A stretch of DNA of 64,000 nucleotides from an uncultured Prolixibacteraceae bacterium (GTDB lineage Bacteria > Bacteroidota > Bacteroidia > Bacteroidales > FEN-979). Location of the stretch: the NCBI GenBank assembly GCA_964616825.1, contig CAZTSX010000007.1, positions 40,248 to 104,247 on the forward strand, in the 5' to 3' direction. Shown here one piece after another: positions 1,262-35,012 of the stretch. The notes beneath the pieces were generated by a model. It was not told where the DNA came from. It made no database searches and saw only the letters and a list, made by a program, of their open reading frames with translations. Position numbers and translations under genes: made by a program. Numbering within the stretch: position 1 is the stretch's first letter; each line of letters starts with the position of its first letter.

Positions 1262-3931
1262 TTGAGATACAGAATCCTGATAACAATTCTTTTTTGTCTT
1301 AGTTCCATGACAGGATTCTCCCAGGGTTCATGGAATCCGGCCGGAGCTGATCCCTCTTTTCCCCGAACCTTGCTTGATACCACTCAGATCGGCACGATCA
1401 GAAATACCCTGTCGGATACGAAGATTTATGATCTCTATCAGCTGGTATGGGACAACGCCAATAGCGATATTCCAGCAGGAAACACTACCAATGGCGAACG
1501 GGGCACGCGGGCACTGATCGCCAAAGAGGCAGCTTTTGTGGCACTCATGGATAGCAAACCTGTATTTGGAAATATCATTCCGTTAACTATTCAGGAGCGC
1601 GAACAGCTTAAGGTGAAGAGCAAACAATTGCTTGAGGAGATCAATACAGCAGTTGGTTTTCAGTCGGGATGGATCTTTTACCAAGAGTGGCAAAACCGTT
1701 CGAAGGAGCTGATCAACTATTTAATTGCGTATGATCTTTTACAAGCTACCGATTCCACAGTCTTCAGTCTGCAGTCTGCAAAAGATTCGTTGATTACATT
1801 CACCGCCCATCTCTATCACCGGGCAATGGCGACATATACGGTTTATTTCTGGCATTTTAAATTCTTCGAATTTCAGTTCAACAATCATAGCATCATGACA
1901 GCTTCTGCACTTGGACTGGCTGCTATCTTATTCAATGATTACGAAAATCCTGATCCCGACTACCAGCCACAAAACTGGATCGATGCCGGGTTATGGAACC
2001 TCGACAACACGCTCTTTCGTGAAAACGGCATCTATCCAAGATGTTCTGAACCGGATACGATTGCCGGATATGCTGAAGGGCCCGGCTATTTTGAATACGG
2101 TTTTGAGAATGCGTTCCCCTTTATCCGCGCTTTCTGGAATTTTCTCCCTGACGGGTACTATTCGATGACGTTTAATGCCGTAACCCGCGATATTCGAAAT
2201 CCCTGGTATGACCCCAATTATGATAACCTGTATGAGTGGATGAACCTCATCCGGATGCCTGATGGTAGCTCACCGGCTATTCATGATAGTCCGATCGGCT
2301 TCGGGACCAGCATCACTTCTTTGTCCGGAAAAAGTCGTTTTAACATTCCAAACCTCTCCTATCCGCCAACCGATGCCATGTGGCGCACCCAATATATTGC
2401 TTCGAACGTGCCGGAAGGCTCTTTTTCAGACACGCTGTTCAGAGCCCTCCCTGAAGCCGGCTCGGTAATTTTTCGCTCCTCCCACGATCGGGACGCAGTT
2501 TTCATGCACTTCATCGGAAAACATGACATTCCGCTTAGTGGTGCGAAAGCCCATCACCAGGGAGATGCCAGCAGTTTCTCAATCATGGCAAACGGCGAAC
2601 TGCTGGCTGTTGATCCCGGATATTCCGGTTACCAGGAGTCGTTTGCCATTAACCAGGCATCTAACCACAGTCTTGTATTGATCAATGGTTCAGGTCCCTT
2701 GCCACCCATCGGAGAATTTGTTAGCGTTGAAACCAACACCTGCTGGATCGAAAATTTCTTCAACACCCCACTGCTGGATTATGGGGAAGTACGAACCGCA
2801 TACTTTGACGCTGATATCATCCGGAAAAACCTGTTTGTACGGGATCGCTATTTCATCCTCTCCGATTTCCTCTCCTCCCCCGACCTGAATACCTATACCT
2901 TCCAGGTACAGGGAAACGGACTGATCGGAGGAACTCCCGGGACTCCGGAAGGAGTTTTTACGCCCGATTTCACTAACCATCAGGGTATCTATTCCAGGGA
3001 TTCGACACAATTACTCGTCCATACGACTGTTACCGATGGTGCTGATAGCTATACCTATACAATGGATAGCCTGGCCACAGGCACCAGCCAGTACCGTCAT
3101 TACAGCAAAATGCTGGTCCGGAAAGACAGTGTGGAAAACACACAATTCCTCTCCGTCCTGTTCCCGTTTAAACAAACAGAACCCGATGTAGTTACACTGC
3201 AAACACAACCGGGAATCAATGCGATCATGATTGAAGATGGGAATAATCAAGACCTGGCCTTCACACAGGAAGACTCCTCGCTTGTGGAGATCCCGTTGAG
3301 TATCAGCGGATTTCAAAACAATATTAAAGGCAATGGAGCAATGAATTTCATCTCTTTTTACACGAACTCCTTTCACTCGCTTTTTCTGGAGCATGGAGAT
3401 TCAATGATAGTCGGGAGTCATCTCTATATAAAAGCAGATCACCTTATTGATGTTGCATATCAGCACACAAATGATCTGCTGCATCAGGGATATGTGAGTG
3501 ATGCCGGATGGGTCGGATTCAGGACTGCTACCCCAGGGCATTTCATCCCTACTTCAGGAAACATTATCACATATACTTATGATTTCGATAATTCGCTCCT
3601 CATGGTGCTGTTTGGCGGACCGTCGAATTTCATTCTTGAATACTCTACTGGTGAAGGTGATCGCCCTGGAGAGAATCAGAACGATGAGATCCTCATCAAG
3701 AAGCTTGGAAATGGAAACTATGAGATGGTCATCAACAGTGATCGTTCAGAAGATGGGTTGATATCCATCTACGCTGTTTCCGGAAAGAATGTGTTGACAA
3801 GAAACGTTCATCTGTATCCCGGATCCAACAGCTACAGGTTTGATCTTTTCCGGTTTTCTGATGGACTCTACTTGATTTCCATAGCTTCTGACGCAAAGCA
3901 ATTCTCAACAAAACTTATCCACAACAACTAA
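1262..3931 (+). CDS. secreted heparinase II/III-like polysaccharide lyase-family protein with T9SS C-terminal sorting domain
   Basis: 889-aa ORF with a TTG start and signal peptide MRYRILITILFCLSSMTGFSQ. HHQGDASSFSIMANGELLAVDPGYSGY resembles the heparinase II/III C-domain signature. The last ~80 aa (LISIYAVSGKNV...LYLISIASDAKQFSTKLI) look like a T9SS CTD. Confidence 0.6.
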   Translation: MRYRILITILFCLSSMTGFSQGSWNPAGADPSFPRTLLDTTQIGTIRNTLSDTKIYDLYQLVWDNANSDIPAGNTTNGERGTRALIAKEAAFVALMDSKPVFGNIIPLTIQEREQLKVKSKQLLEEINTAVGFQSGWIFYQEWQNRSKELINYLIAYDLLQATDSTVFSLQSAKDSLITFTAHLYHRAMATYTVYFWHFKFFEFQFNNHSIMTASALGLAAILFNDYENPDPDYQPQNWIDAGLWNLDNTLFRENGIYPRCSEPDTIAGYAEGPGYFEYGFENAFPFIRAFWNFLPDGYYSMTFNAVTRDIRNPWYDPNYDNLYEWMNLIRMPDGSSPAIHDSPIGFGTSITSLSGKSRFNIPNLSYPPTDAMWRTQYIASNVPEGSFSDTLFRALPEAGSVIFRSSHDRDAVFMHFIGKHDIPLSGAKAHHQGDASSFSIMANGELLAVDPGYSGYQESFAINQASNHSLVLINGSGPLPPIGEFVSVETNTCWIENFFNTPLLDYGEVRTAYFDADIIRKNLFVRDRYFILSDFLSSPDLNTYTFQVQGNGLIGGTPGTPEGVFTPDFTNHQGIYSRDSTQLLVHTTVTDGADSYTYTMDSLATGTSQYRHYSKMLVRKDSVENTQFLSVLFPFKQTEPDVVTLQTQPGINAIMIEDGNNQDLAFTQEDSSLVEIPLSISGFQNNIKGNGAMNFISFYTNSFHSLFLEHGDSMIVGSHLYIKADHLIDVAYQHTNDLLHQGYVSDAGWVGFRTATPGHFIPTSGNIITYTYDFDNSLLMVLFGGPSNFILEYSTGEGDRPGENQNDEILIKKLGNGNYEMVINSDRSEDGLISIYAVSGKNVLTRNVHLYPGSNSYRFDLFRFSDGLYLISIASDAKQFSTKLIHNN

Positions 3932-3977
3932 CGAATCTGAAAACTGACATAGTCTATCATCTGGTTCGTGAAGCAGC

Positions 3978-4541
3978 TCATTCTTCTAACAGGTACATCT
4001 TCAATCCTTTTTCATCAACCGGTTCGATTAGCATTTTTTTCAGCGTTTCATAACTTCCAAACCGTTCATGAATCTCCTTTTTTGCAATCAGGGTAGGGTG
4101 TGGACTGATCGTGGCCCGGAACGAAGAGTATCGATACCACTCACAATTCGACACGACCCCATGCTTCCTTGGATTCTGATTGATATATCGCATTACATTA
4201 CACAATACTGCCTCACGGCGGATTTCGATCCGTTTTAGCTTGAAACGAAACAATTTCCCTATATGCCCGGTTTTGTTCACAAAACCCTTCGCATATGAGT
4301 TGAAAAGCAGAGCAAATGGCTTGTACGAATTCCCGTTAACCTCCTCTTTCATTCTGATCAGAAAATGAAAATGGTCGTCGAGAATGCAATATGCCCAGGT
4401 GTCGGCTACAGGCACAATATGCCTTTTGTATAGCTTCAGGAAGAAATGATAGTCCTCCTCTTTCGGAAACAATGGGTCCCCGTTTCTTGTCCGGTTATAA
4501 ATGTGATAAAATTTTCCCGGTTCCAGAATAATGGTTTTCAT
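3978..4541 (-). CDS. REP-associated / IS200-like Y1 (HUH) tyrosine transposase, solitary
   Basis: HUH motif DDHFHFLIRM and the Tyr region RYINQNPRKHG are present. There is no adjacent tnpB and I saw no terminal hairpins. Confidence 0.75.
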   Translation of the reverse strand: MKTIILEPGKFYHIYNRTRNGDPLFPKEEDYHFFLKLYKRHIVPVADTWAYCILDDHFHFLIRMKEEVNGNSYKPFALLFNSYAKGFVNKTGHIGKLFRFKLKRIEIRREAVLCNVMRYINQNPRKHGVVSNCEWYRYSSFRATISPHPTLIAKKEIHERFGSYETLKKMLIEPVDEKGLKMYLLEE

Positions 4542-4552
4542 AGCTTTTTTTA

Positions 4553-4587
4553 CCCATTAATCCGGAAAAGAGGCAAAAGGTTATACG
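4553..4587 (-). repeat. copy a of the conserved motif TATAACCTTTTG-N8-CCGGATTAATGG
   Basis: The reverse complement reads cgTATAACCTTTTGcctcttttCCGGATTAATGGg. It ends 11 nt upstream of the transposase ATG at 4541. Confidence 0.8.
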
Positions 4588-4747
4588 TTGTGGCAACGTT
4601 TTTTATTAACAACTTAGGGATTAAAGGCGATCCCGAAGTTTTTATTCATGAACTGTGAGGTGCGAATAGATCCACAATATCAGGCTGGATAGCCTCTGTG
4701 GGATTCAGCTGATTGAATCAGGGTAGAAAAATATTGTTCGGTGCAGA

Positions 4748-5248
4748 TTAATTTTCCCGGAGAATGTGGTCGTCATACTCAATCTCAAAACTGAGTTTAT
4801 GCTTCGACTCCTCCTGAGCCAAGAGAAGAAACATCTCCCGCATTTCGGGCTGTTGAGCCCGGTCGGCCAGAGCCGTATAGAGTTTGAAAGCCGCTTTCTC
4901 TTTCTTCATAACCAGGATCAGGGCCTCTTCATAGGACATATCCGGCCTGTATTTCACATCCACAAGATAGTCAGAAAGTTTCATGTCTACTACTTTCTCG
5001 GTTCCAAAGACGGCAGCGCCATCCGCCTTCACCTCCATAAGCTTGGCTTTATGAGCCATCTCCTCTTTTGCAAACTCATGAAATGCCTTTTTAATACTCT
5101 CATTCTTAGACAGGTTCGCCAGTTTCAGATAAAAATCCACGGCAGCTTGCTCTTCCCCGATTGCAAAATCGAGTACATCATTGATGTTATTGAATTCTTT
5201 CATAGTTATATGTTTGTATTTGTTTGTTGCTGGTTTCTTGTCCCTCAT
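4748..5248 (-). CDS. ferritin-like / rubrerythrin-family diiron four-helix-bundle protein without a rubredoxin domain
   Basis: The helices EEQAAVDFY, AKEEMAHK, KKEKAAFKLY and AQEESKHK give an E...ExxH x2 pattern. No CxxC pair is present. The ATG at 5246-5248 overlaps the upstream stop codon (ATGA). An alternative start is Met16 at 5203. Confidence 0.7.
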   Translation of the reverse strand: MRDKKPATNKYKHITMKEFNNINDVLDFAIGEEQAAVDFYLKLANLSKNESIKKAFHEFAKEEMAHKAKLMEVKADGAAVFGTEKVVDMKLSDYLVDVKYRPDMSYEEALILVMKKEKAAFKLYTALADRAQQPEMREMFLLLAQEESKHKLSFEIEYDDHILREN

Positions 5249-8200
5249 ACCCTTAAACGTTCTTCAAATTCTTCTTCAAACCGCTTCACCAGGTAATCGC
5301 ATCCGTAATCAAATGAACGATTTAGGTTATCCTCCCTGGTATAAACCATCGCGAGGCTCTCTTCGGGCTGGTCCTCCTCAACATGCGGGAGCAACCGGAT
5401 GATCTCGCTAAAGACATCGTTGCGGCTTTCAAGGCCGTTCAGACCAAATCTTTTCAACAGTTCGATGAACTGCATGATGGAAGAGATCTCAATCCGGGAA
5501 GGCAATACAGGTTCAAATTCAAGAATAGCTTTTTGTGTATTTGAAAACGTGCCGCCAATCTCGGTGGGGAAGGAAGCCGGTAATATCAGGTCTGCTTCTT
5601 TTGCTGTGTCGGTCATAAAATAGTCCTGAACCACAATGAAGGGAATTTGTTTGATCAGAGAAGAATAGGTCTGGGTGGTGTCGCAACCAACCGGATCTTC
5701 ACCGAAAATAAACAGGTTCTTCATTATTTTTTTTGATAGCTTCAGTACCAGGCAATCCGCAACAATTCCCGGTATATCCTTAACATTCCACACATCTTTC
5801 AGTTTCTTGACATATGCTTCATCATCAAGAGGAATTCCTCCAACACCTGTACGACGACTGATTCCCATATCGAACAGGCCCTGAGAGTTATTCTTCTCCT
5901 TGAGTGTGATTAGTCCGTTGGCTGTTTTTCCGAGTTTACCGGTAATCATCGCCAGGTTGAACAGTTCCAGGGAGCTGTTGCTGGTGATCTCTTTTTCTGA
6001 GAAGATAGCGATGGCATTCATCTCAGTATTATACTCTTCAGCGAATTTCCTGATAACTTTTGGCAACACACCAGCATTGGATACCAATGTTGCAAAGTCT
6101 TCTTCCAAAATCTGAAGCTGGTACTCATTCTGTCCGATCACACGATCGCGGAGGAATAAATCGTTTTCTAACCCAAAGGTAAGCAGGTAGTGGTTAACCG
6201 CTTTGATGAAGTAATAATACGACTTCACGTGGATCACCTGATCGACCTTGTGAGTCATCGAACTCTCCTCCTTTTCGGTAACCAGAATTACCGGAATACC
6301 CTCTTTGGCCCGGGCATTATTCACCATGAATCCGGCCACAGCGTGATCCATGTTAATATCTGTCCCAATAAGGAAGATCTTCCCGGCTTTTCGGATGCTG
6401 TCAAGGGGTGCATTCTTTTGATGATTGAACCTGTATCCATCACCCCGTGTGAGGTAATGAAATGATCCAATATTGCCTGTCACGACTGCGGCACGTGCCA
6501 GTTTCTGGATCAGGTACATCTCTTCGTTTGTGAGCCTGGCTCCTGCAAAAAAACTATTTTCATCAGGCTTGACAGCACTGATTTTCTCAACGATTAACTT
6601 GAATGCTTCTTCAAAACTGATTTCCTTAAATTTTCCGTTAATCTTTTTTAACGGCCTGACTATCCGGCTCTTATCATTAAGATAAGCGTATCCAAAGCGA
6701 GGATATCTGCAGATATTGCCCTGTTGGTTCACCACTCCTTTGTTTCCGGAAACACTCATCACAAAGCCGTTGACCTGATTCAGCGTGATCGAACAGCCGA
6801 TTGAACAATAATTGCAGATTGCTTCGGATGGAGTTGTCTGAACCGGCCCGGGCTTGAACAGAACGTTCTCGGTGATCGCTCCTGTCGGACATGTTGAAAT
6901 ACACATCCCACATGATTCACAATTAGTATCCTGCAAGGCTTCTCCCATACTGGGTGAGACAAAAGTTTCAAAACCTCTGTTGACCAGTCCCAGGGCATTT
7001 GCGCCAACCACATCCCGGCAAATTCGGACGCAGCGTGAGCAAAGGATGCATTTATTGTTGTCGATCTCGATATATGGATGGCGGAAATCGACAGCATATT
7101 CGTTGAATTCACCAGCGAATCCTTTCTGGTCAGCATTGTATTCTGTCGAATACTTCTGCAGATCACAATTGAAAAAAGCTGTGCATCCGCATTCGAGGCA
7201 ACGTTGTGTTTCGTGAATTGCCACCACTTCATCAGCGTATCCCAACTCAACCTCATGGAAGTTCATCCGTTGATCAGCTTCCAGCACCGGCATCTCTTCG
7301 CGCTCCTGGGCAATAAACAGATCCTGATAATCTTCCTGAACTTGTGTCCTGAAATTATTGCGCCGGCTAATAAAGGGTTGTTTCAACGGTTTGATCTCAT
7401 CGCCCACCAGGTATTGGTGAGCACTATTTGAAGCAATTTTAGCCTGGGCTATCGCTTCGATGATGGTAGCCGGACCGGTAACGCCATCCCCTGCTGCAAA
7501 AACCGATGGAATACCGGTTTGTAATGTCTCTCTGTCGGCATCAATATCAGCCCACTTATTAACTTCAAGCTTATCGCCTTCGGTATTGGCGTTGATATCA
7601 TCGAGGAAATTCACGTCTGTCTTCTGACCAATGGCAGCCAGGACGTAATCTACGTTGAGTTCAAATTCAGATCCTTCGATTGGTACCGGCCTGCGTCGTC
7701 CCGAAGCATCAGGTTCTCCCAGCTTCATTTTAATACAGGTAACTGATTCCACCTCCCCTTTGTTATTCTTGTTGATCTTTTTAGGAAGTGTAAGAAAGAG
7801 ATATTCCACTCCTTCAAGTTTTGATTCATGGATCTCGATGGGATTGGCAGGCATCTCATTCTCTGTACGACGGTAAATCACATAGACGTTATCCGCCTTG
7901 CATCGCAATGATGTACGGCAACAGTCCATGGCCGTATTTCCTCCTCCGATGACAGCAATGGATTTGCCGCGGAAATCATACCGTTGTCCGGTCATCTCCA
8001 TGTTCTTCAGAAAATCGATCCCTGAGAAAACGTTTTCTGCATCATCCCCTTCACACCCTACACCTGTCCCAATCTGAGACCCGATGGTCAATATCACGGC
8101 ATCGTATTTATCTTTCAGCTCTTGATAGCTAAGGTTCTCTCCTAATTTCTGGTTGTAGAATATATTCATACCCAGATCGGTAATATTCTTCACCTCTTTG

Positions 8201-8952
8201 TCAAGGATATCATTCGGAAGCCTGTATTCAGGGATTCCGTAACGGAGCCAGCCTCCTGATTGGGGAGCCGCTTCAAAAATATCTACCTGGTGGCCCTCTA
8301 TCTGCAGGAAATAACCTGCTGAAAGACCGCCAGGTCCTGCACCGATCACGGCCACTTTTTTGCCAGTGGAGGGTTTGATCTCCGGAACAAACTTATCAGG
8401 GGACTCAAGGTCATAATCGGAAGCAAAGCGTTTCAGGTAATCGATACCTACGGGAGCGCTTTCATCCAGCAGGTTGCGACTGCATGCCACTTCACAGGGA
8501 CGAACACAAACCCGTCCGCAGATTGCCGGTAATGGGTTGGTCTCTTTGATGAGAGCCACAGCATCAGAATATAATCCCTTCTCAATCAGGGCGATATATC
8601 CCTGAACATCCACGCCGGCCGGACAGGTTTGCTTGCATGGCCCCAGACAGTCAGCATAGTGATTGCTCAACATCAGTTCCAACGCCATTTGCCGGGATTG
8701 ACGAATTGGTTCATTGTCGGTGACCACCTTCATCCCCTCTTTTATATGGGTGGAGCAAGCAGGCTGGTGTCCGCGCATTCCTTCTACTTCAACCACGCAT
8801 ATATAGCAAGAAGAGAATGGCTCTAGTCGTTCATCATGGCAAAGTGTTGGTATCTTGATGCCTTCCCGGTTAGCCACCTGGAGGATGGTTTCTCCCGGGT
8901 TTCCCTGAACGATCGTTCCGTTAAGAATTACGTTTACATCTTTTTGAGCCAT
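5245..8952 (-). CDS. 1235-aa NuoG-like iron-sulfur protein with an inserted GltD/NfnB-like FAD/NAD(P)H module and a C-terminal molybdopterin-oxidoreductase-like domain
   Basis: N-terminal [2Fe-2S] spacing C38-x10-C49-x2-C52-x13-C66. GltD-like part: CPAGVDV...GRVCVRPCEVAC, KKVAVIGAGPGGL, IAVIGGGNTAMD, GEPDASGRRRP and FAAGDGVTGP. Then come H580-x4-C-x2-C-x7-C, two CxxCxxCxxxC ferredoxin motifs and the MopB-type CNYCSIGC...GNIC cluster motif. The following ~500-aa domain has no obvious catalytic Cys or Sec. Confidence 0.7.
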   Translation of the reverse strand: MAQKDVNVILNGTIVQGNPGETILQVANREGIKIPTLCHDERLEPFSSCYICVVEVEGMRGHQPACSTHIKEGMKVVTDNEPIRQSRQMALELMLSNHYADCLGPCKQTCPAGVDVQGYIALIEKGLYSDAVALIKETNPLPAICGRVCVRPCEVACSRNLLDESAPVGIDYLKRFASDYDLESPDKFVPEIKPSTGKKVAVIGAGPGGLSAGYFLQIEGHQVDIFEAAPQSGGWLRYGIPEYRLPNDILDKEVKNITDLGMNIFYNQKLGENLSYQELKDKYDAVILTIGSQIGTGVGCEGDDAENVFSGIDFLKNMEMTGQRYDFRGKSIAVIGGGNTAMDCCRTSLRCKADNVYVIYRRTENEMPANPIEIHESKLEGVEYLFLTLPKKINKNNKGEVESVTCIKMKLGEPDASGRRRPVPIEGSEFELNVDYVLAAIGQKTDVNFLDDINANTEGDKLEVNKWADIDADRETLQTGIPSVFAAGDGVTGPATIIEAIAQAKIASNSAHQYLVGDEIKPLKQPFISRRNNFRTQVQEDYQDLFIAQEREEMPVLEADQRMNFHEVELGYADEVVAIHETQRCLECGCTAFFNCDLQKYSTEYNADQKGFAGEFNEYAVDFRHPYIEIDNNKCILCSRCVRICRDVVGANALGLVNRGFETFVSPSMGEALQDTNCESCGMCISTCPTGAITENVLFKPGPVQTTPSEAICNYCSIGCSITLNQVNGFVMSVSGNKGVVNQQGNICRYPRFGYAYLNDKSRIVRPLKKINGKFKEISFEEAFKLIVEKISAVKPDENSFFAGARLTNEEMYLIQKLARAAVVTGNIGSFHYLTRGDGYRFNHQKNAPLDSIRKAGKIFLIGTDINMDHAVAGFMVNNARAKEGIPVILVTEKEESSMTHKVDQVIHVKSYYYFIKAVNHYLLTFGLENDLFLRDRVIGQNEYQLQILEEDFATLVSNAGVLPKVIRKFAEEYNTEMNAIAIFSEKEITSNSSLELFNLAMITGKLGKTANGLITLKEKNNSQGLFDMGISRRTGVGGIPLDDEAYVKKLKDVWNVKDIPGIVADCLVLKLSKKIMKNLFIFGEDPVGCDTTQTYSSLIKQIPFIVVQDYFMTDTAKEADLILPASFPTEIGGTFSNTQKAILEFEPVLPSRIEISSIMQFIELLKRFGLNGLESRNDVFSEIIRLLPHVEEDQPEESLAMVYTREDNLNRSFDYGCDYLVKRFEEEFEERLRV

Positions 8953-8989
8953 CAGTTTCTTTTCTTGTTTTTTTGAGAATTCGGAGAGA

Positions 8990-10765
8990 TCATGTTAAAA
9001 CGATGGAATCAAACTTACACTTTGAGTAACAGATGCCACATTTCGTACAAAGATCCTGATGAATCAGATGTGGTTGCTTGCGCTCTCCTGTGATCGCATC
9101 GGAGGGGCAATTTTTCAGACAAACCAAACATCCGGTACACGCCTCCTGATCAACCGTATAGGTCAGTAAGGGCCGGCATACTTTCGCAGGGCATTTTTTG
9201 TCTTTTATATGTGCGATGTACTCATCCCTGAAATATTGAAGAGTCGTCAGAACGGGGTTAGGCGCTGTCTGGCCCAAACCACACAGGGAGTTATCTTTGA
9301 TCTGATATGACAGCTCCTCCAGTTTCTCAATATCTCCTTCTTTCCCTTTTCCATCAGAAATTCGTTCAAGGATCTCCAGCATTCTGATGGTTCCCATCCG
9401 ACAAAACGTACACTTCCCACATGACTCTTTGCACGTGAAATCGAGGAAAAACTTGGCGACATCCACCATGCAGGTACTCTCATCCATCACTACCATTCCT
9501 CCGGAACCCATAATGGCGCCCGTTGCATTTACGGAATCATAATCCACAATTGTATCAGAGAGATGTTCCGGTATACAACCTCCTGAAGGCCCGCCAAGTT
9601 GCACGGCTTTGAATTTTTTATCATCCTTGATGCCTCCTCCCAGTTTCATGATCACATCATTGATTGTGATGCCCATTGGGACTTCCACCAGCCCTGAATT
9701 TTTAATCTTTCCGGCCAGGGCAAAGACTTTGGTCCCTTTACTTCTTTCGGTTCCATAGCTGGCAAATGCGTCGCCTCCGTTAAGTATGATCCAGGGAATA
9801 TTAGCGAATGTTTCGACGTTATTAATATTAGTCGGATTGCCCCATAAACCTTTCTCAGCAGGAAACGGAGGGCGTCTGCGGGGCATCCCTCGTTCTCCTT
9901 CAACCGATGCGATCAGTGCAGTTTCTTCACCGCACACGAAAGCGCCAGCTCCCTCTTTAATGTAGATGTTGAAATTAAAATCTTCAATTCCGAAAGCATT
10001 GTTCCCTAGATACCCTCTATCACGGGCCTGATCAAGGGCAATATTAAGTCGTTTGATCGCAAGGGGATATTCAGCACGGCAATAGATCACACCACCAGTC
10101 GCATCAATGGAATAGGCGGCAATGATCATCCCTTCAATGACGGAATGAGGATCCCCTTCCAAAATGCTGCGATCCATGAAAGCCCCGGGATCGCCTTCGT
10201 CTGCATTACAGATGATATATTTTTCTTTCGACTTATACCCCCGGGCAAATTTCCATTTCATCCCTGTAGGGAATCCACCTCCACCCCGGCCCCGAAGTCC
10301 TGATTTGAGGATTGTTTCGATGACCAGATCGGGAGGGATCTTCTCATCGGCAATCTTCTGAACAGCTTTGTATCCTTTCCGGGCTTCATACTCTTCGATA
10401 GATTCGGGATCAATGTATCCGCAATTTCTCAACACGATCTTTACCTGCGCCGAAATAAATTTATTTTCCGATCCATCAAAGAGATCGGAGTAAACGATAT
10501 AATCACGAACAGGATCCTGTTGATTGATGTGTTTTTCTATAACTTCAATCGCCTGCTCTTCAGTAATGTCACCATACAAATAAGTTCCGGTATTGTCTAC
10601 AATCTCTACCAGAGGTTCCCTGTAACACATCCCGATGCAGCTGGTTTTCCGGAGGTTAAAATCCAGATTATCCGACTGCTTCAACGCTTTGATCTTCTCA
10701 TATGTCTTATTCGCGCCGGCGGCGATTCCACAGCTTCCAAGTCCGACGGTGACGGTAGTGTTCAT
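8990..10765 (-). CDS. NuoF/HydB-like NADH- and FMN-binding subunit (Bfu-type B subunit)
   Basis: Contains GLRGRGGGGFPTGMKWKF, ICNADEGDPGAFMDR and the CGKCTFCRMG cluster motif. It also has an N-terminal thioredoxin-like 2Fe-2S domain (GSCG...SCIGMC) and two C-terminal CxxCxxCxxxC(P) motifs. Confidence 0.85.
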   Translation of the reverse strand: MNTTVTVGLGSCGIAAGANKTYEKIKALKQSDNLDFNLRKTSCIGMCYREPLVEIVDNTGTYLYGDITEEQAIEVIEKHINQQDPVRDYIVYSDLFDGSENKFISAQVKIVLRNCGYIDPESIEEYEARKGYKAVQKIADEKIPPDLVIETILKSGLRGRGGGGFPTGMKWKFARGYKSKEKYIICNADEGDPGAFMDRSILEGDPHSVIEGMIIAAYSIDATGGVIYCRAEYPLAIKRLNIALDQARDRGYLGNNAFGIEDFNFNIYIKEGAGAFVCGEETALIASVEGERGMPRRRPPFPAEKGLWGNPTNINNVETFANIPWIILNGGDAFASYGTERSKGTKVFALAGKIKNSGLVEVPMGITINDVIMKLGGGIKDDKKFKAVQLGGPSGGCIPEHLSDTIVDYDSVNATGAIMGSGGMVVMDESTCMVDVAKFFLDFTCKESCGKCTFCRMGTIRMLEILERISDGKGKEGDIEKLEELSYQIKDNSLCGLGQTAPNPVLTTLQYFRDEYIAHIKDKKCPAKVCRPLLTYTVDQEACTGCLVCLKNCPSDAITGERKQPHLIHQDLCTKCGICYSKCKFDSIVLT

Positions 10766-10780
10766 GTTGATTTCGTTAGG

Positions 10781-11299
10781 TTAGTTTTTTTCTGCCAGCC
10801 TTATATTTTTTATCACTTTCACAGCCTGATTGCCTGTTAATTTGCCATAGGTCTGATCACCGACCATCATCACCGGGGCCAGGGAGCAACAGCCCAGACA
10901 AGCTACCGACTCCAGGGTAAATAGCCTGTCGTCTGTGGTCTCTCCGTCTTTGATCTTCATCGCCTCCTCGAGGGATTCGGTGAGTTCGTTCGCGTTTTGC
11001 ACGTGACAAGCAGTACCGTGGCATACCTTGACTATGTGTTTACCAACAGGGTTCAACCGGAACTGTGCATAGAAGGTAGCAACGCCATACATATCACTGA
11101 GAGGGATTCCCGTTTTGACGGAGATCTTTGTAAAAACAGCTTCAGGGATAAAACCATAAATATCCTGAGCCCCCTGCAATAGTGGGATCACATTTCCCTT
11201 TTTTCCGATATACTTTTCAATCAACGGATCAAGAAGTACGAGATCTACGTCAATGGATTCCTTCTTCTCCGTTTTCGCTTGTAATCGTGGAATGCGCAT
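10781..11299 (-). CDS. NuoE/HydC-like thioredoxin-like [2Fe-2S] subunit
   Basis: VCHGTACH...SVACLGCCSLAPVMMV is the typical 24-kDa subunit signature. Confidence 0.85.
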   Translation of the reverse strand: MRIPRLQAKTEKKESIDVDLVLLDPLIEKYIGKKGNVIPLLQGAQDIYGFIPEAVFTKISVKTGIPLSDMYGVATFYAQFRLNPVGKHIVKVCHGTACHVQNANELTESLEEAMKIKDGETTDDRLFTLESVACLGCCSLAPVMMVGDQTYGKLTGNQAVKVIKNIRLAEKN

Positions 11300-11408
11300 T
11301 AAATAATCTTATTAGAGTAACGACCTTTATTCATGCCAGGTCCTGGTTATCAAGATGTGCATGGAGTAATTTGTTTCGATGTTTGAGTCTGATTCCCTGT
11401 CCCCTGTA

Positions 11409-13211
11409 TCAATCTTTCCGCCTGGTTTTCATTTTCGACAGTTTCTTGTGAATTGCGTTGGCAGCAATTCTTCCGGCGCCCATGGCTTCAATCACAGTAG
11501 CGGAACCTGTTACAATGTCGCCGCCAGCATAGACAAACTCTTTTGAGGTTTCGTTTGTTTTTGGATCTACAACAATATTTCCCCACTTATTAAGCTCTAT
11601 ATCCGGAGCGGTCTGGAATATGATCGGATTGGCATCGTTACCAATAGCCACCACTGCCAGATCGACATCTAATACAAAGTTTGATCCTTCAATCGGAACC
11701 GGTCTTCTTCGGCCGGAATCATCCGGTTCTCCGAGTTTCATTTCGATACACTCCATTGCTTTGAGCGTATTGACATCTGTTCCGAGAAATCTGATTGGAT
11801 AGGTGAGCAACCGGAATTTCACTCCTTCTTCCTCTGCATGAATCACCTCTTCATGACGTGCAGGCAGCTCGGTTCTTGATCTGCGGTAGACGATGGTGAC
11901 TTCAGTTGAACCGGTTCGGATGGCCGTTCTGGCACAATCCATGGCTACATTCCCTCCTCCAATGACAGCGACACGGTTCCCTTTCGGTTTCGGTGTATCA
12001 TATTCCGGGAATCTATAAGCTTTCATCAGGTTCATCCGGGTTAGATATTCATTTGCGGAGAAGACATTCCCCAGGCTCTCCCCTTCAATGTGCATAAACT
12101 TGGGCAAACCGGCTCCCACCGCAATGAAAACTGCATCGAAGTGCTCGAGTAACTCGTCAACCGTATTGATCTTTCCGATAACCTGGTTCAGTTCGATCCT
12201 GACACCCATCTCTTTCAGGTAATTGATCTCAAACTGCACAATGGATTTTGGAAGCCTGAACTCCGGGATTCCATATGTAAGTACGCCACCCGTTTCATGA
12301 AATGCTTCAAAGATCGTCACGGCATATCCGAGGAGTTGCAAGTCGGCTGCAACGGTCAGGCCGGCTGGTCCTGAGCCTACAACAGCGATTCTTTTTCCCT
12401 GTTTTTTCTTGATCACCGGGATGCTTACCAGGTCCATCTTCCGTTCCCAGTCTGCCACAAAACGCTCCAGGTTACCAATCGCGACCGGCGTATCCTTGAT
12501 GCCAACGATACAGATCTCCTCACATTGGTTTTCCTGCGGACATACACGGCCACAAATAGCAGGCAGTACATTTCGCTCCTTTACTTTCTTGATGGATTCG
12601 TCAAACTTCTCTTCAGCAATCAACCTGATAAACTCAGGGATATCTATATTAACCGGACATCCATCGACACATTTCGGTTTTTTACATTGCAGGCAACGGC
12701 CGGCTTCCAACAACGCCAGTTCAGAAGTATAGCCATAAGGGACCTCCTGGTAATTTGCTGTTCTTAGCTTCTGATCCTGAGCAGGCATCTCCTGGCGGGG
12801 TATTTTTAGTTTGATTTTTCGTTCATCTGCCCTGGTCAGGCCATGCCACTCACAGCCGTATTTCATGCAGATGTAAAAGGGAATCAACTTTGAATAGCTG
12901 GAGATCGTTATCTCTCCCAGTGATGATCCACATTCGCCACATTTCTTTTCAGGTATGACAAGGTTGGTTTTGCAAAACGGACATGCAAGTCCGGTTAGAA
13001 TCTTCCCTTCTTCGATCGGAATTGATGATGCAACCTCAAATACATCAAGGTATGGGCTAAGTTTAAGCTGAAAATCGGAACCGTTATAGCTAGCATCAAC
13101 GATGATAGTTTGGGCCTCTTTATCTTCAACATTAAAGCTTTGGTTGCAATGCGGGCAGTAGGTGTTTAGAAAGGTTTTGTACTTTAAGTACTTTACATCT
13201 TGCTCATTCAT
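11409..13211 (-). CDS. nfnB: NfnB / GltD-family NADPH-dependent oxidoreductase beta subunit with a ~135-aa N-terminal Cys-rich ribbon module
   Basis: Contains RCLQCKKPKCVDGCP, GRVCPQENQCEEIC, AVVGSGPAGL, AVIGGGNVAMD and GEPDDSGRRRP. The N-terminal extension has C19xxC22, C77xxC80, C91xxC94 and C115x4C120xxH123. Confidence 0.8.
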   Translation of the reverse strand: MNEQDVKYLKYKTFLNTYCPHCNQSFNVEDKEAQTIIVDASYNGSDFQLKLSPYLDVFEVASSIPIEEGKILTGLACPFCKTNLVIPEKKCGECGSSLGEITISSYSKLIPFYICMKYGCEWHGLTRADERKIKLKIPRQEMPAQDQKLRTANYQEVPYGYTSELALLEAGRCLQCKKPKCVDGCPVNIDIPEFIRLIAEEKFDESIKKVKERNVLPAICGRVCPQENQCEEICIVGIKDTPVAIGNLERFVADWERKMDLVSIPVIKKKQGKRIAVVGSGPAGLTVAADLQLLGYAVTIFEAFHETGGVLTYGIPEFRLPKSIVQFEINYLKEMGVRIELNQVIGKINTVDELLEHFDAVFIAVGAGLPKFMHIEGESLGNVFSANEYLTRMNLMKAYRFPEYDTPKPKGNRVAVIGGGNVAMDCARTAIRTGSTEVTIVYRRSRTELPARHEEVIHAEEEGVKFRLLTYPIRFLGTDVNTLKAMECIEMKLGEPDDSGRRRPVPIEGSNFVLDVDLAVVAIGNDANPIIFQTAPDIELNKWGNIVVDPKTNETSKEFVYAGGDIVTGSATVIEAMGAGRIAANAIHKKLSKMKTRRKD

Positions 13212-13223
13212 AGTAGTATGGGT

Positions 13224-14048
13224 TTAATGGATCGAAAACAACAAACAATCTTTCTCTTCCTTTAGATAGATGGAGTTACGTTTCATCAGTTCATCAAAAT
13301 TCACCTGGTGTCCATCAAAGTCAGGTCCGTCCACACAGGCAAACTTCACTTTATCATCAATGGTGACACGGCATCCCCCACACATCCCTGTTCCATCAAT
13401 CATAATGGGATTCAGGCTGACGATTGTGGGTGTGTCAAACTTCTTTGTAAGGCCACAAACTGTTTTCATCATGATCAGAGGTCCAATTGCATAGACCAAC
13501 TTGATGTCATTTCGTTCCTGGAGATATTTTTCAAGCGGCTGTGTCACAAATCCCCGGGTGCCATAGCTTCCGTCATCGGTTGTCACCACCAATTCATCAC
13601 TGATCATTTCCATCTCTTTCTCCAGTATGACCAGGTCCTTATCCCTGGCTCCGATAATGCTGATCACATAATTGCCGGCTTCCTTGAACGCTTTGGCGAC
13701 ATGATGCAAAATGGCCACACCGGTACCTCCTCCAACCATCACAACGGTTCCTATCTTCTCAACTTCTGCAGGTCGTCCGAGCGGACCAGCAATATCCCGG
13801 ATAAAATCGCCCTCATTCAATGAGCGCATCAATGCAGTAGTTTTTCCTACCACCTGAAAGATGATCGTAATAATCCCTGCGAACTCATCTTTATCAGCAA
13901 TAGTCATCGGAATGCGTTCACCGGTTTCGTTTACTCGTAAGATAATAAATTGTCCTGCCTGCGCTTTTTTTGCAATTTTCGGAGCAATAATGTCAAATCG
14001 TACAATAGTACCTTTAGCTAACTCTTGTTTTCTGCTTATCTGAAACAT
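13224..14048 (-). CDS. nfnA: NfnA / PyrK-like ferredoxin-NADP reductase-type alpha subunit
   Basis: FNR-like fold motifs RIPMTIAD and MVGGGTGVA, with a C-terminal CGGCRV...FACVDGPDF [2Fe-2S] motif. It sits 12 nt upstream of nfnB. Confidence 0.8.
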   Translation of the reverse strand: MFQISRKQELAKGTIVRFDIIAPKIAKKAQAGQFIILRVNETGERIPMTIADKDEFAGIITIIFQVVGKTTALMRSLNEGDFIRDIAGPLGRPAEVEKIGTVVMVGGGTGVAILHHVAKAFKEAGNYVISIIGARDKDLVILEKEMEMISDELVVTTDDGSYGTRGFVTQPLEKYLQERNDIKLVYAIGPLIMMKTVCGLTKKFDTPTIVSLNPIMIDGTGMCGGCRVTIDDKVKFACVDGPDFDGHQVNFDELMKRNSIYLKEEKDCLLFSIH

Positions 14049-14066
14049 AGTATATTTAGTTAATTG

Positions 14067-14942
14067 TTACCATTCCAAGCTATCCTCCAGTTTGATATCC
14101 TGAAGGTCTTCATCACTCAATCCATGCCATTTGCAGCCTTTTTTCGAGCAAAGATAGAAATTAATCATTTTTGTTCTGGCACTGATAAATATTCTTGCGA
14201 TGGGTGAACCACACTCTTCACATGCCTTGTTTGCTGAAATCAAACTGGTGTCACAATGTGGGCAGGAAATATCAGTCACCGGCTTATCTTCCTGAAGATA
14301 CACTGTTGATTCTGAGGTAAATACATTCATATAAGGACTCAAGATCAGAATACCTGATTTCCCATCGGTTGTGATATTTAGCTTCAGGATATCGTGTTCG
14401 ATCAGGCTTTTAAGGCAGTGGGGGCAGTAGGACAACAGGAAGGCTCCGGATTCGATCATCTCTTTCTTCTCATCTTTTTCTGCAGCAGGAGGAGCCGGTT
14501 TTGTTGCCATGGTTTTCCGATGCTCATTGGTGTATTTTCCGGCTAACCCGTAATCCTGATATAATTTACTCAATGCCAGGGAAACATCATCGAATTCTAC
14601 AAAATGATTTCTACACCCGCTTCTTGAACAGATACTGACCCTTCCTCCCATATCCAGGATAAACGGAACCAGTGGGGCGCTACAAATAGAACATGCATTT
14701 TCAGATGTGATCTCAGTCTTACAGTGTGGACATGAAAACTGTGCAATCAGATCAGGGGAGAGTGGAATACTACACCGGTAATTATAACTCCCCCAAATAG
14801 AACTCAGAAAAATGAATGAAGTTTGTTTCTTGGCCTTTATTCCCAGTTTTATACTGGGCTTCTTATCTACAAGTTCTTGATCATCAATGAGGGAGGTATT
14901 GCAGTATGGACAGTTAACAATAAGGGTAATAAAATCATACAT
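14067..14942 (-). CDS. uncharacterised protein made of two tandem 8-Cys/1-His ribbon modules
   Basis: Module 1 has C11xxC14, C71xxC74, C84xxC87 and C105x4C110xxH113. Module 2 has C173xxC176, C227xxC230, C241xxC244 and C265x4C270xxH273. The pattern matches the NfnB N-terminus, and a Pro/Ala/Lys-rich linker joins the two modules. Confidence 0.7.
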   Translation of the reverse strand: MYDFITLIVNCPYCNTSLIDDQELVDKKPSIKLGIKAKKQTSFIFLSSIWGSYNYRCSIPLSPDLIAQFSCPHCKTEITSENACSICSAPLVPFILDMGGRVSICSRSGCRNHFVEFDDVSLALSKLYQDYGLAGKYTNEHRKTMATKPAPPAAEKDEKKEMIESGAFLLSYCPHCLKSLIEHDILKLNITTDGKSGILILSPYMNVFTSESTVYLQEDKPVTDISCPHCDTSLISANKACEECGSPIARIFISARTKMINFYLCSKKGCKWHGLSDEDLQDIKLEDSLEW

Positions 14943-14985
14943 GGCCTGCTCACTTTTCTTTATTCTGGTAACATCTCAGGAGTTG

Positions 14986-14993
14986 CAAAATTA
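14986..14993 (-). promoter_or_regulatory. candidate -7 promoter box (TAATTTTG) for the redox gene string
   Basis: Plus-strand caaaatta, which reads TAATTTTG on the minus strand. It lies 44 nt upstream of the ATG at 14942. Confidence 0.4.
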
Positions 14994-15017
14994 CAATAAA
15001 ATATCTTACAGATTGGA

Positions 15018-18000
15018 TTATCCACCCCATGTAATCACAGAAATTCGTTTTCTTCCATCCATTCTTACGACAAGTGGTTTTACAAAAGAGGAGACAGTAA
15101 AATAGTTATATTCGTAAGTGTGGTTTTGTTGTTTAAGAATATCGTACCTGATAAAGCTTTTTGAGATCTCAGGCTGGACGCACAGATACCCGACATTCAT
15201 GGATGTAACATTATGAAAGAAATGCGATCCGGATGAGGCATCCAGCGGAAAACCTTCCAGGCTGGTCTCCACAATCACCCTGGCATTGGATATTTGAGGC
15301 CATGTAACCGGGATCCCTATCCACCGGTCCCTGGTCCCCCACCGTCCCGGTCCGATCAAAATATACTTTTTGTTCCGGCTGATCATATCGGCATTGATCT
15401 TCTCTATCTCATCAGCCATTGCAACGGTTTGAGATTTGTCAAATGTGTCGGGATCAACATAGACGACATCATAGATGTTATCGATGATACCATTACCCAT
15501 CTCGCGCTCTGAAAAGAGTAAAATTTGCTCCTTCCGGATCTTTTTCATGTTGATCCTGTAATCCTTGGTATTCCCGATCATCGGCTTAACCTGGAGGAGA
15601 TAAAACGTGGCTCTGCCATGCTGATCCTTGGTCAGGTCTACTGCAAACTCGATCTCAACCGGTGAACCCAGCGCCTCTTTCACCACATCAAGAACGACTT
15701 CGATGGTTTTAGCAAGTGGAATATAATTATATTTCAGGATGTCGGCAAAATTGATCACCCGCGGGCCGGCTTTCGTCAGTCCGGGTATGATCTGGTTATC
15801 ATCAGTACTAAAAACCGATGCAATATGGTTGATAGAGCCATGATGTTCAGCTTCGTCGATATCCAGGGTCCTCAATCCGGCTTCTTCACCATCAAGGAGG
15901 TTCAGGTCCTCTTTCTTCAAATCAACAGCATAAAAACGAACCTGACTCCGTTTTAATTGAGTATGTGCGGAACTGATCTCCAGATTTGGATACTGAGGTG
16001 AAAAGCGGAATGTTTTCTCACCTTCAACAACATACTGGCCAAGTCCAAGTGCAATTACAGCAACCCCCTCTTCCGGTTTCATGTGTCCATAGGGATAATA
16101 GTTGTATGAATGAGCAACACCACTGATATGCGGATAGAAAACATCCTCATGTTGGTTTCCTACCACCTCCTGAATCACAACAGCCATTTTTTCCTGGTCA
16201 ATCCGGTAATGCACAGCTTCAAAATATTTTTTCGCTGTTGGAGAATATATCGATGCATATACCAGTTTGATTGCATTTTTTAACTGTTCAAGGCGAACAC
16301 TCGGATCGGGATGGTTATTGGGGATCATGTAGGTTTCAAAGATACCGGCGAAAGGCTGGTTCAGGGAATCTTCAAATAATCCGGAAGAACGGATTGCCAG
16401 GGGTTTGTTGATGTGCTTGATGATCAGTTTTAATTTACTGATTAAGGCTTCAGACTGCTTCCCTTCGATAAACCATCTCTTTAGCTTTTGATAATCGGTC
16501 TCCAACATCACTTTTTCACGCAATTGATTCCGGTCCATGAAAAAATCAAACTCATCTGTTCCGATTATCGAGGTGACCGGTGTCTGGATATTTATATTAG
16601 GAATATGGTGGGAGAAGTCGTAGTTATATATAACTGTGTTACTAAAGGCAAGACCTCGTCCTTTGCCCCCAAGAGTACCTTCCGTCAGGCTAAGGATATT
16701 AGTAGCATCAGTGATAGCCGATTCCTCAAATGGGATTACTTTACCCTTATCCTGTTCGTTCCTGAAATGCGAGATCACCGAGACCAGATACTCGCGCAAA
16801 CTGGCAGCATCTTTAAAATCAGCGACTTTGGCGGGATTCAGGATCTTTGCTGCCTGGATTTCACTCCGTGCCATCAACCAAAGGGAGAAGTGATCTTTGT
16901 GGGCATGGAAAAGAAGTGACTCCTCCGGTATCGTTTTTAATTTGTCTTCAAACTCTTTCAGCGACCTGGCCTGATCAATTTGCTTTCCTTCTTTGTCGCG
17001 GTAGATAAAGTTCCCAAAACCAAGGTAGCGGGTTATGAAACTTCTGAAATCGGCTAGCAGGGTGTCTGAATTTTTGTTGATGAAAGCAGTCTTCATATCA
17101 TCCGCCCAGGAGGTGTTTGAATCGTCGAACGACTGCAGAACGATCGGGAGATCACGGGACTCTTTGCGAATTTGGTTGACAAGAGTGAATCCGGCATTAT
17201 CATTGAGCTTTCCGTCCTTCTTAAACTTGACGTCAGAGATCAGGCAGAGGATAAATTCGTTGTACTTATGAAAGATATATATAGCCTCCTCATAGGTGGA
17301 AGCAAGTAAGATTTTTGGGCGGGCTTTCAATCGGAGAATACGGTACAACTCATCCGTAGTGACATCTTCAATGATATGCTTCGTCTGCTCCAAAACAATG
17401 TTGTAGAGCATAGGGAGGTAGAGCGAGTAATATTGCGGCGAATCTTCAACCAGCAGAATTACCCTGACCATCCCAAGTTTGGTATCATTCTCTATATTGA
17501 TCTTATCTTCCAGGTAATTGATCATGGCAAAAAAGATCCGGGTATCCCCGTTCCAGATGAAGATGCGATCTATCCAGTTTAGCCGTTCTGGCTCCTCTTC
17601 GAAAAGGGCGACGTCGATGTTGCTGTTTAAGAGTAGAAATACAGGGATGTATTGAAATGCAGCCTTAACCTGCTTGCTAAGCTCAACCGGAAATTCCTTG
17701 TCGACACCAAGCATAATAATCACCAGGTCATAGTGCTTGGCATTCAACTGTTCCATGACTTCTTCTTTTGAAGAAACCCCTGTAATACGAGGCATTGTGC
17801 TCAGGCTCAATTGATAATACTCACCCAGCACATGTTCTGAAAAGCGACCCTCCTTTTCAATGCTGTAAGCATCGTACAGATTAGCCACAAGCAGGATTTC
17901 ACGAACCTTGAACGGCATTAAGTCGTGGTAAAGATCCCTGTTGGCATTCGTTCGGTTGAGAAATGACTGCAACAAGTGGCGACTGGAGGTTTCCTGTTCC

Positions 18001-18863: not shown

Positions 18864-18883
18864 ACCTGAAATGAATAAGCTGT

Positions 18884-18891
18884 CAAAATTA
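18884..18891 (-). promoter_or_regulatory. candidate -7 promoter box (TAATTTTG)
   Basis: Plus-strand caaaatta, 21 nt upstream of the ATG at 18863. Confidence 0.4.
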
Positions 18892-19074
18892 GCACAAAGT
18901 TTCGTGACAGAGAAATAATAAGTAGAAATGACAGCTTGTAAGTGTATTACTGATAGGGGTATAGGTAATCTTCGGATGTTTCTTTACGTAATTCTCGTAA
19001 GTGATTGAGTTATAGCACATGATAAGATAAAAAAAGATAAAAATTTAGTTTTTTTAGAAATCTTTTCTTTAATA

Positions 19075-19092
19075 TTGTGACGAATTTCACAA
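19075..19092. promoter_or_regulatory. perfect CRP/FNR-type palindrome TGTGA-N6-TCACA
   Basis: The sequence ttGTGAcgaattTCACaa reads as TGTGA cgaatt TCACA. It is centred about 36 nt upstream of the gdhA ATG. Confidence 0.45.
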
Positions 19093-19119
19093 TGAATCAT
19101 TTAACTAAAACATTTTTCT

Positions 19120-20505: not shown

Positions 20506-20540
20506 AGAAGGCTGCCTGTTTTCAGGCAGCCTTCTTTATT
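20506..20540. terminator. bidirectional rho-independent terminator hairpin between convergent genes
   Basis: 13-bp perfect stem agaaggctgcctg / caggcagccttct with loop tttt, followed by ttatttta. The hairpin overlaps the last codons of the minus-strand gene. Confidence 0.7.
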
Positions 20541-22850: not shown

Positions 22851-22855
22851 TCGTT

Positions 22856-24813: not shown

Positions 24814-24818
24814 ACTGT

Positions 24819-26698: not shown

Positions 26699-26725
26699 CC
26701 TGTGTCTTCAATTATTGTGGATTCC

Positions 26726-33735: not shown

Positions 33736-33749
33736 CAAATAGAACGCGG

Positions 33750-35009: not shown

Positions 35010-35012
35010 TGA

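Follow-up and report, generated by a model that had tools for sequence, protein, structure and literature searches.

Bifurcating transhydrogenases of the Stn or Nfn-Bfu type are the closest described systems to the locus analyzed here, which lies in a 64,000-nucleotide stretch of DNA (the window) from an uncultured Prolixibacteraceae bacterium and is centered on a minus-strand gene at 5245..8952. The architecture of the large subunit of these enzymes, named StnC, NfnA (of the Bfu type) or NsoC, is known from purified, assayed protein (PMC7483475, PMC9304861) and from three cryo-electron microscopy structures (8oh5, 9bov, 9n5u). In Sporomusa ovata StnC, a GltD NADPH-binding domain (residues 102-565) is fused into a NuoG-like protein, the N-terminal approximately 100 residues carry a [2Fe-2S] cluster, and the C-terminal FdhF-like domain is inactive (PMC7483475, PMC10482914). 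Kremp et al. credited earlier work on Nso with the idea that GltD was integrated into a NuoG-like protein, and described the HxxxCxxxCxxxCP and CxxCxCxxxxC motifs that this integration leaves (PMC7483475). Nfn-Bfu has already been listed in Bacteroidetes hosts by Schut et al. (PMC9304861), and a literature search for Bacteroidota-specific work on Stn/NfnABC returned only that one-line mention.

Judged by homology and domain order, the 1235-residue protein of the window is an uncharacterized Bacteroidota NfnA/StnC, the large subunit of a known bifurcating NADPH/NADH/ferredoxin enzyme. It is a Bacteroidota member of the Stn/Nfn-Bfu family, whose GltD-in-NuoG design was already known from the Nso and Stn work. 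A sequence-only reading of the same DNA had held that no characterized enzyme has such a domain order; the identical architecture is in fact characterized, assayed and solved under the names StnC, NfnA and NsoC.

The large subunit and its partner subunits

Homology, domain order, ligand conservation and operon structure were observed directly. The 120 best relatives of the large subunit, which are 67-100% identical to it and 1202-1274 residues long, were aligned to score conservation. The three genes and the parts of the large subunit are as follows:

5245..8952, minus strand: nfnA/stnC, Nfn-Bfu (Stn) transhydrogenase large subunit, 1235 residues (PDB sequence matches)
8668..8952, minus strand: N-terminal [2Fe-2S] domain, residues 1-95, with C38/C49/C52/C66 (Pfam Fer2_4 at 4-80; four cysteines invariant in 120/120 relatives)
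7318..8670, minus strand: inserted GltD/NfnL-like module, residues 95-545 (Pfam Fer4_20 and Pyr_redox_2)
7153..7317, minus strand: linker and post-insertion cluster motif C585-x2-C588-x-C590-x5-C596, residues 546-600 (cysteine conservation and alignment to the solved enzymes)
6871..7077, minus strand: ferredoxin-like domain for two [4Fe-4S] clusters, residues 626-694 (Pfam Fer4_Nqo3; eight cysteines invariant)
6676..6822, minus strand: MopB-type [4Fe-4S] site, C713/C716/C720/C748 (Pfam Molybdop_Fe4S4; aligned with C8/C11/C15/C42 of FdhH)
5248..6666, minus strand: degenerate formate dehydrogenase-like domain, without a molybdenum or tungsten (Mo/W) ligand and without domain IV (FdhH alignment and Pfam)
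8990..10765, minus strand: NuoF-like subunit, the StnB/NfnB counterpart (matches to 8oh5_B, 9bov_B and 9n5u_B)
10781..11299, minus strand: nfnC/stnA, NuoE-like [2Fe-2S] subunit with C93, C98, C134 and C138 (matches to 9bov_C and 8oh5_A)

A search of PDB sequences with the large subunit returned NfnA of Caldicellulosiruptor saccharolyticus (Csac; 9bov_A, 1178 residues, E 1e-233), StnC of S. ovata (Sov; 8oh5_C, 1172 residues, E 6e-213) and NfnA of Thermococcus sibiricus (Tsi; 9n5u_A, 963 residues, E 7.5e-189). The matches were near full-length, that to 9bov_A being colinear over query residues 13-1048 and 1072-1184. Over residues 1-720, Csac NfnA is 46% and Sov StnC 42% identical to the large subunit, values that fall inside the 31-51% at which Kremp et al. 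accepted Stn homologues (PMC7483475). No NCBIfam model matched the large subunit at its curated cut-off and all matches were partial, which fits the generic names of close relatives in public sources. Database names for the Bacteroidota relatives include "formate dehydrogenase major subunit", "molybdopterin-dependent oxidoreductase" and "FAD-dependent oxidoreductase"; labels of this kind would misdirect attempts to reconstruct the metabolism of Bacteroidales from the sea and from sediments, and the proteins are better read as NADPH/NADH/ferredoxin transhydrogenase.

The open reading frame and the motifs reported by the sequence-only reading were all recovered, residue for residue, and the only in-frame stop among the 1235 codons is the terminal TGA. 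Pfam placed Fer2_4 at residues 4-80, Fer4_20 at 104-183, Pyr_redox_2 at 198-504, Fer4_Nqo3 at 626-694, Molybdop_Fe4S4 at 711-759 and Molybdopterin at 763-1155. This is the NfnA-type order of an N-terminal [2Fe-2S] domain, an NfnL/GltD-like FAD/NADPH domain and a NuoG/Fdh-like domain, and it agrees with the succession of NuoG-type [2Fe-2S], GltD-like, ferredoxin-type and MopB elements that had been proposed. The cluster motifs begin with C38, C49, C52 and C66, H98-x3-C102-x3-C106-x3-C110-P, and C145/149/153/157. These are followed by the dinucleotide motifs GAGPGG (204-209), GGGNTAMD (336-343) and GEPDASGRRRP (412-422), and by the post-insertion residues H580, C585, C588, C590 and C596. The ferredoxin-type cysteines are C635/638/641/645 and C678/681/684/688, and the MopB-type region consists of CNYCSIGC (713-720), GNIC (745-748) and the cysteine-free NIGSFHYLTRG (827-837).

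The partner subunits point to the same enzyme, since the top PDB matches of all three gene products come from the same three complexes. The NuoF-like protein matched 8oh5_B (E 3e-260), 9bov_B (E 5e-260) and 9n5u_B (E 4e-258) and is colinear with StnB/NfnB over residues 5-589 in a full-length alignment, and the NuoE-like protein matched 9bov_C (E 1e-54) and 8oh5_A (E 4e-48), with the cysteines of the gating [2Fe-2S] cluster present as C93-x4-C98 and C134-x3-C138. The NuoF-like protein carries the GLRGRGGGGFP and TGAIMGSGG loops, C449/452/455/495 and a CPAKVC linker, and both CxxCxxCxxxC motifs of its C-terminal two-[4Fe-4S] domain are intact (C543-553 and C573-583). It thus has the thioredoxin-like N-terminal domain, FMN/NAD loops, Zn linker and C-terminal two-[4Fe-4S] domain of a Bfu-type B subunit, and on these motifs its loops, linker and C-terminal clusters mark a bifurcating Bfu core. 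The genes at 10781-11299, 8990-10765 and 5245-8952 follow one another on the minus strand with gaps of 15 and 37 nucleotides; the NuoF-like gene was upstream of the large subunit in 76/76 related loci, and the NuoE-like gene was present in 71/72. The three genes are therefore very probably those for subunits C, B and A of a transhydrogenase of the bifurcating Nfn-Bfu/Stn type.

Cofactor ligands and the formate dehydrogenase-like domain

In all 120 relatives, 31 cluster cysteines, H98, K174 and R244 were invariant, as were the FAD motif GAGPGG and the NADPH motif GGGNTA (336-341) with YRR. The cluster sites of the large subunit, one [2Fe-2S] and six [4Fe-4S], match those of StnC and Csac NfnA. 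The ligands of the Csac A7 cluster (C108, C147, C151 and K170), which was published with three-cysteine plus lysine ligation (PMC11829005), align to C110, C149, C153 and K174, and K170 and R239 of Sov align to K174 and R244. The lysine is the diagnostic ligand of the cluster adjacent to FAD, and its mutation abolishes activity in both Sov (K170) and Tsi (K165) (PMC10482914, PMC12018979).

The affiliation of the GltD-like insert was judged from the ranking of bit scores and from a lysine/glutamate signature. Searched alone, the insert scored 422 bits to Tsi NfnA, 416 to Csac NfnA and 383 to Sov StnC, and lower to T. maritima NfnB (326), Pfu NfnL (280), GltD (207) and DPD (137). The lysine/glutamate column separates the two types, with K174 in the insert and glutamate in both T. 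maritima NfnB and the 600-residue NfnL encoded in the window itself. A classical NfnL identity for the insert was rejected on both counts, K174 not being glutamate and the scores to NfnA-type modules being higher.

The sequence-only reading had likened a motif written as H580-x4-C-x2-C-x7-C to that of the His-ligated cluster of NuoG and HydA. H580 is variable among the 120 relatives (H in 100, Q in 12, N in 2, E in 1, plus others) and is R in Sov, A in Csac and T in Tsi, so it cannot be a conserved ligand and was rejected as the histidine of the NuoG-type cluster. The cysteines of that motif were read correctly but C590 was overlooked; the conserved form is C-x2-C-x-C-x5-C, in which the four cysteines are invariant and align to CLECGC...C of the three solved enzymes. 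By alignment, the role of the NuoG-type histidine falls to H98, which is invariant. The Pfam model PF10588 (40 positions) aligns through its positions 1-17 with residues 87-103, and in the PDB search complex I 75-kDa subunits align to query residues 4-103 and resume at approximately residue 593, which places the GltD module within the motif of the His-ligated cluster. The insertion had thus been recognized, although its site is not cleanly between the first two clusters as was claimed. Both junction motifs of Kremp et al. are found, as H98...C110-P and C585...C596, and where GltD has CxxCxxxxCxxxCP, H98 and C102 take the first two positions of the motif. From these alignments we infer the following ligands: C110, C149, C153 and K174 for A7; H98, C102, C106 and C157 for A6; and C585, C588, C590 and C596 for A3. 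The assignment uses all 12 conserved positions and was derived from sequence, not from coordinates.

Two other positions were noted in the same alignment. All 120 Bacteroidota relatives keep C145 (nucleotides 8518-8520, minus strand), the cysteine of the ancestral CGRVC motif of GltD; an equivalent is found in T. maritima NfnB but in none of the three solved NfnA/StnC proteins. The position of C114 in Sov and Csac is always valine in the Bacteroidota relatives.

Residues 700-1235 and eight relatives were aligned with E. coli FdhH (from NC_000913). The four [4Fe-4S] cysteines are conserved, while Sec140, His141, Arg333 and Lys44 of FdhH align to T835, R836, K1018 and Y750. Among the 120 relatives, the Sec140 column holds G, N, D or T and never cysteine, the His141 column R or Q, the Arg333 column K (96) or R (24), and the Lys44 column Y or F; the absence of cysteine from the region at 827-837, already reported in the sequence-only reading, was confirmed. 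The large subunit ends opposite FdhH residue ~579 of 715, the last ~135 residues (domain IV) being gone, and no Pfam match to the pterin-capping Molydop_binding domain PF01568 was obtained in the large subunit. The C-terminal domains of StnC and NfnA were published as catalytically inactive (PMC10482914, PMC11829005), and NfnA lacks the beta-barrel domain that Nqo3 and FdsA keep. S. ovata Stn had no formate activity (PMC7483475), and Csac NfnABC has an incomplete pterin site and contained no metals other than Fe and Zn in significant amounts (PMC11829005). Judged by this alignment, the MopB-like domain is a non-catalytic, structural remnant, as had been proposed earlier, and a true formate dehydrogenase was rejected on the explicit comparison with FdhH.

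When searched alone, the MopB-like fragment (residues 700-1235; 5248-6855, minus strand) reached E 2e-49 with the genuine formate dehydrogenases 7qv7_S and 9t1s_L, and was weaker (E ~4e-34) against the C-terminal domains of Csac and Sov NfnA. This suggests that the Bacteroidota domain has diverged less from formate dehydrogenase, though it keeps none of the catalytic residues.

Gene neighborhood and distribution

The genes that flank the three subunit genes include the following:

4748..5248, minus strand: ferritin-like diiron (rubrerythrin-family) gene directly downstream of nfnA (Pfam Rubrerythrin; weak PDB matches to 2fzf and 1vjx)
11409-13211, minus strand: classical NfnL, 600 residues, passing TIGR01316, with glutamate in PVAIGNLERF (NCBIfam and ligand residue)
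13224-14048, minus strand: classical NfnS, 274 residues, passing NF004862 (NCBIfam)
15018-18863, minus strand: giant protein of 1281 residues with PPDK_N at residues 730-1108 and a weak receiver-like match at 506-583
19120-20478, plus strand: Glu/Leu/Phe/Val-type (glutamate) dehydrogenase, divergent from the operon

The diiron protein carries two E...ExxH halves; it lacks a rubredoxin domain and is free of cysteine. Its annotated ATG overlaps the nfnA stop (ATGA); the relatives are 151 residues long, which makes M16 (nucleotide 5203) the likelier start. In 45/68 related Bacteroidota loci, the gene shares the strand of nfnA and lies less than 300 nucleotides 3' of it, and its product may or may not belong to the complex.

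PPDK_N, an ATP-binding (ATP-grasp) domain, is the sole clear domain of the giant, and a PDB sequence search with the giant gave no match at E <= 1e-3. The giant (~1280 residues) adjoins nuoE in 30/60 loci, with a 17-nucleotide gap in one related locus (L001), and so it is probably co-transcribed with nfnCBA. In some relatives (loci L001 and L003), a second PPDK_N-giant paralogue of ~990 residues follows the ferritin-like gene.

The pair at 11409-14048 fits the definition of a classical NfnSL, and its position within the operon places two unrelated Nfn types in one gene cluster. NfnS and NfnL are preceded by a 291-residue protein made of two 8-Cys Zn-ribbon modules (trio at 11409-14942, minus strand), and the first ~136 residues of NfnL are homologous to its two repeats (43% identity, E 1e-32). 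In the window the trio is located between the PPDK_N gene and nuoE; 11/79 related loci have it, at positions that vary. To our knowledge, an 8-Cys Zn-ribbon module on NfnL has not been described previously. The divergent glutamate dehydrogenase arrangement was found in 28/80 related loci; this enzyme, as a possible consumer of NADPH, may be tied to the transhydrogenase, which is compatible with NADPH production and is no proof of it.

Scans of 3800-19300 for sigma-70 promoters (33 versus 26.4±5.1, with a scan model that does not cover Bacteroidota promoters) and for intrinsic terminators (13 versus 14.8±4.1) were at chance level. An open reading frame of 187 residues (3978-4541, minus strand) matches REP-associated tyrosine transposase below threshold (46 bits versus a cut-off of 80), and a few related loci have homologues of it, in differing places. 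On the other side of the cluster, an ordinary polysaccharide-biosynthesis cluster (20522-27790, minus strand, and 33732-36392, plus strand) encodes a Wzy-type polymerase/ligase, GT2 and GT4 glycosyltransferases, a flippase, a methyltransferase, a DegT aminotransferase and a sugar transferase, and is followed by ABC-2 transporter genes.

Among species-representative genomes, 284 related stretches were found, nearly all labeled Bacteroidales or Bacteroidota, and a type IX secretion system (T9SS) sorting domain in a neighboring gene of the window is consistent with Bacteroidota. The closest of these genomes, a metagenome-assembled genome of the uncultured "Bacteroidetes bacterium NIOZ-UU56", is 95% identical and has the same gene order. 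The DNA of the window was found in marine and seawater metagenomes. In two marine metatranscriptomes (X21 and X22), the whole cluster (3900-19000) is covered by contigs of a ~95-97% identical strain, and one contig of 2386 nucleotides (12683-15068) runs from NfnL through NfnS and the Zn-ribbon gene into the end of the PPDK_N gene; this evidence consists of assembled contigs, for which DNA carry-over is possible. The family is abundant in Bacteroidota, and the present member carries little weight as a discovery. Experimental work might be worthwhile only for the conserved neighbors, namely the diiron gene, the PPDK_N giant and the Zn-ribbon-tagged NfnSL.

Proposed function, alternatives and known systems

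By homology to the solved enzymes, NADPH would dock on the GltD-like module of the large subunit and reduce its FAD. Single electrons would then move via the Lys-ligated A7, the second GltD cluster A6 and the post-insertion A3, and from there via the NuoG-type A2 and A1, to the FMN/[4Fe-4S]/[2Fe-2S] site of the NuoF/NuoE-like core. Bifurcation is predicted to take place in this core, with hydride passed to NAD+ and the other branch leading to ferredoxin via the C-terminal two-[4Fe-4S] domain of the NuoF-like subunit, while the two clusters on the MopB/formate dehydrogenase-like side would form a dead-end branch. The sequence-only reading had located the redox chemistry in the insert, which would hold for the NADPH/FAD chemistry; it missed the electron bifurcation, which would reside in the NuoF/NuoE-like subunits. 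The reaction is expected to be reversible, and in fermenting Bacteroidota its predicted direction is most likely from NADH and reduced ferredoxin to NADPH.

Several observations weigh against this assignment. Identity to the characterized enzymes is only 42-46%, and the activity of the present proteins is a prediction from their sequences. The position of Sov C114 is valine here, as it is in Tsi, and C114A halves the activity of Sov. The classical NfnSL immediately upstream means that the two enzymes may be redundant, or that this one is differently employed. For the T. litoralis homologue, the activity first described was that of an NADPH sulfur/oxygen oxidoreductase (PMC7483475), and the conserved diiron gene after the operon leaves room for an additional or alternative acceptor.

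In an unlikely alternative, the complex would be a non-bifurcating, or additionally functioning, NADPH-driven reductase with, as its acceptor, the diiron protein (peroxide or O2, as an Nfn-Bfu/Rub-Bfu hybrid) or sulfur/O2. The same-strand proximity of the ferritin-like gene to nfnA in 45/68 loci, the prediction of Rub-Bfu complexes (PMC9304861), the Nso activity reported for the T. litoralis homologue (PMC7483475) and a classical NfnSL in the same cluster that could cover the transhydrogenase role are all in keeping with it. However, the BfuBC core is intact, including the ferredoxin-reducing C-terminal domain; the diiron protein has neither a rubredoxin domain nor a cysteine for taking electrons, its gene is missing from about one third of loci, and the predicted Rub-Bfu complexes are without BfuA altogether.

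A larger Bacteroidota operon (PPDK_N giant, nfnC, nfnB, nfnA and diiron gene), in which the diiron protein and possibly the giant are functional partners and to which, in a minority of lineages including this one, NfnSL with its Zn-ribbon module has been recruited, is a similarly speculative proposal. If true, it would be a four- or five-component system coupling the bifurcating core to peroxide/oxygen reduction or to an ATP-dependent regulatory step. We know of no such partner system, of diiron protein or giant with a bifurcating core, described for any Bfu enzyme.

There is very little to be said for a true Mo/W dehydrogenase of formate or another substrate fused to an NADPH module. The Pfam Molybdopterin and Molybdop_Fe4S4 domains, the name "formate dehydrogenase major subunit" given to relatives by some sources and the closer match of the C-terminal fragment to real formate dehydrogenases (E 2e-49) than to the Csac/Sov domains (E 4e-34) would suit it, but in the 120 relatives the Sec140 column is never cysteine and the His141, Arg333 and Lys44 columns hold R or Q, K or R, and Y or F, domain IV and PF01568 are missing, and neither the formate-inactive S. 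ovata enzyme (PMC7483475) nor the metal content and incomplete pterin site of the Csac enzyme (PMC11829005) agrees with it. Equally improbable is a glutamate synthase small-subunit-type donor, complex I NuoG or hydrogenase diaphorase subunit, as hinted by NCBIfam matches to PRK12814 "putative NADPH-dependent glutamate synthase small subunit" (633 bits), NuoG, HoxU and FeFe hydrogenase: these matches are partial and below the cut-offs (e.g., 633 versus 916 bits; 267 versus 470 bits for TIGR01973), the His-cluster motif of NuoG is interrupted, and no hydrogenase catalytic subunit, complex I membrane subunit or glutamate synthase large subunit (GltB) is encoded in the window.

The assignment as an Nfn-Bfu/Stn-type transhydrogenase is best placed by comparison with the known systems. 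Csac NfnABC (9bov/9bp5; PMC11829005) is the top match for the large and small subunits and has the same three-gene set and domain order, with seven Fe-S sites, a three-cysteine plus lysine A7 and an incomplete pterin site, in a large subunit of 1178 versus 1235 residues. It differs in that its C114 is valine here and the CGRVC cysteine (C145) kept here is lost; its host is a thermophilic Firmicute rather than a marine Bacteroidota, and no ferritin-like or PPDK_N neighbors have been reported for it. Sov StnABC (8oh5/8oh9; PMC7483475, PMC10482914) shares the architecture, cofactor sites and inactive Fdh-like domain, and its StnAB bifurcates. In S. ovata, an acetogen, the stn genes are beside Wood-Ljungdahl genes, whereas here the genes are beside the PPDK_N giant, glutamate dehydrogenase and classical NfnSL.

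The archaeal enzymes, T. sibiricus NfnABC and T. litoralis NsoABC (9n5u; PMC12018979), have the same subunits, a Lys-ligated A7 and valine at the Sov C114 position, and Tsi NfnA was the highest scorer for the GltD insert alone. However, the archaeal NfnA is ~270 residues shorter (963 residues), is without the A4 cluster and is monomeric, whereas the window protein keeps all eight ferredoxin-type cysteines. More distant are the classical NfnSL/NfnAB (4ylf, 5jca), which share the GltD-like FAD/NADPH module, two [4Fe-4S] clusters and the same overall reaction; in these the FAD of NfnL itself bifurcates, the proximal cluster has glutamate in place of the lysine of NfnA, and the partner is NfnS rather than NuoE/F-like subunits. 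Finally, FdsABG, the R. capsulatus formate dehydrogenase (6tg9) and complex I NuoEFG resemble the present proteins in their NuoE/NuoF/NuoG-type input scaffold and MopB-fold C-terminal domain, but they are without the GltD insertion, and formate dehydrogenase has in addition a Cys/Sec Mo ligand and a C-terminal beta-barrel domain.

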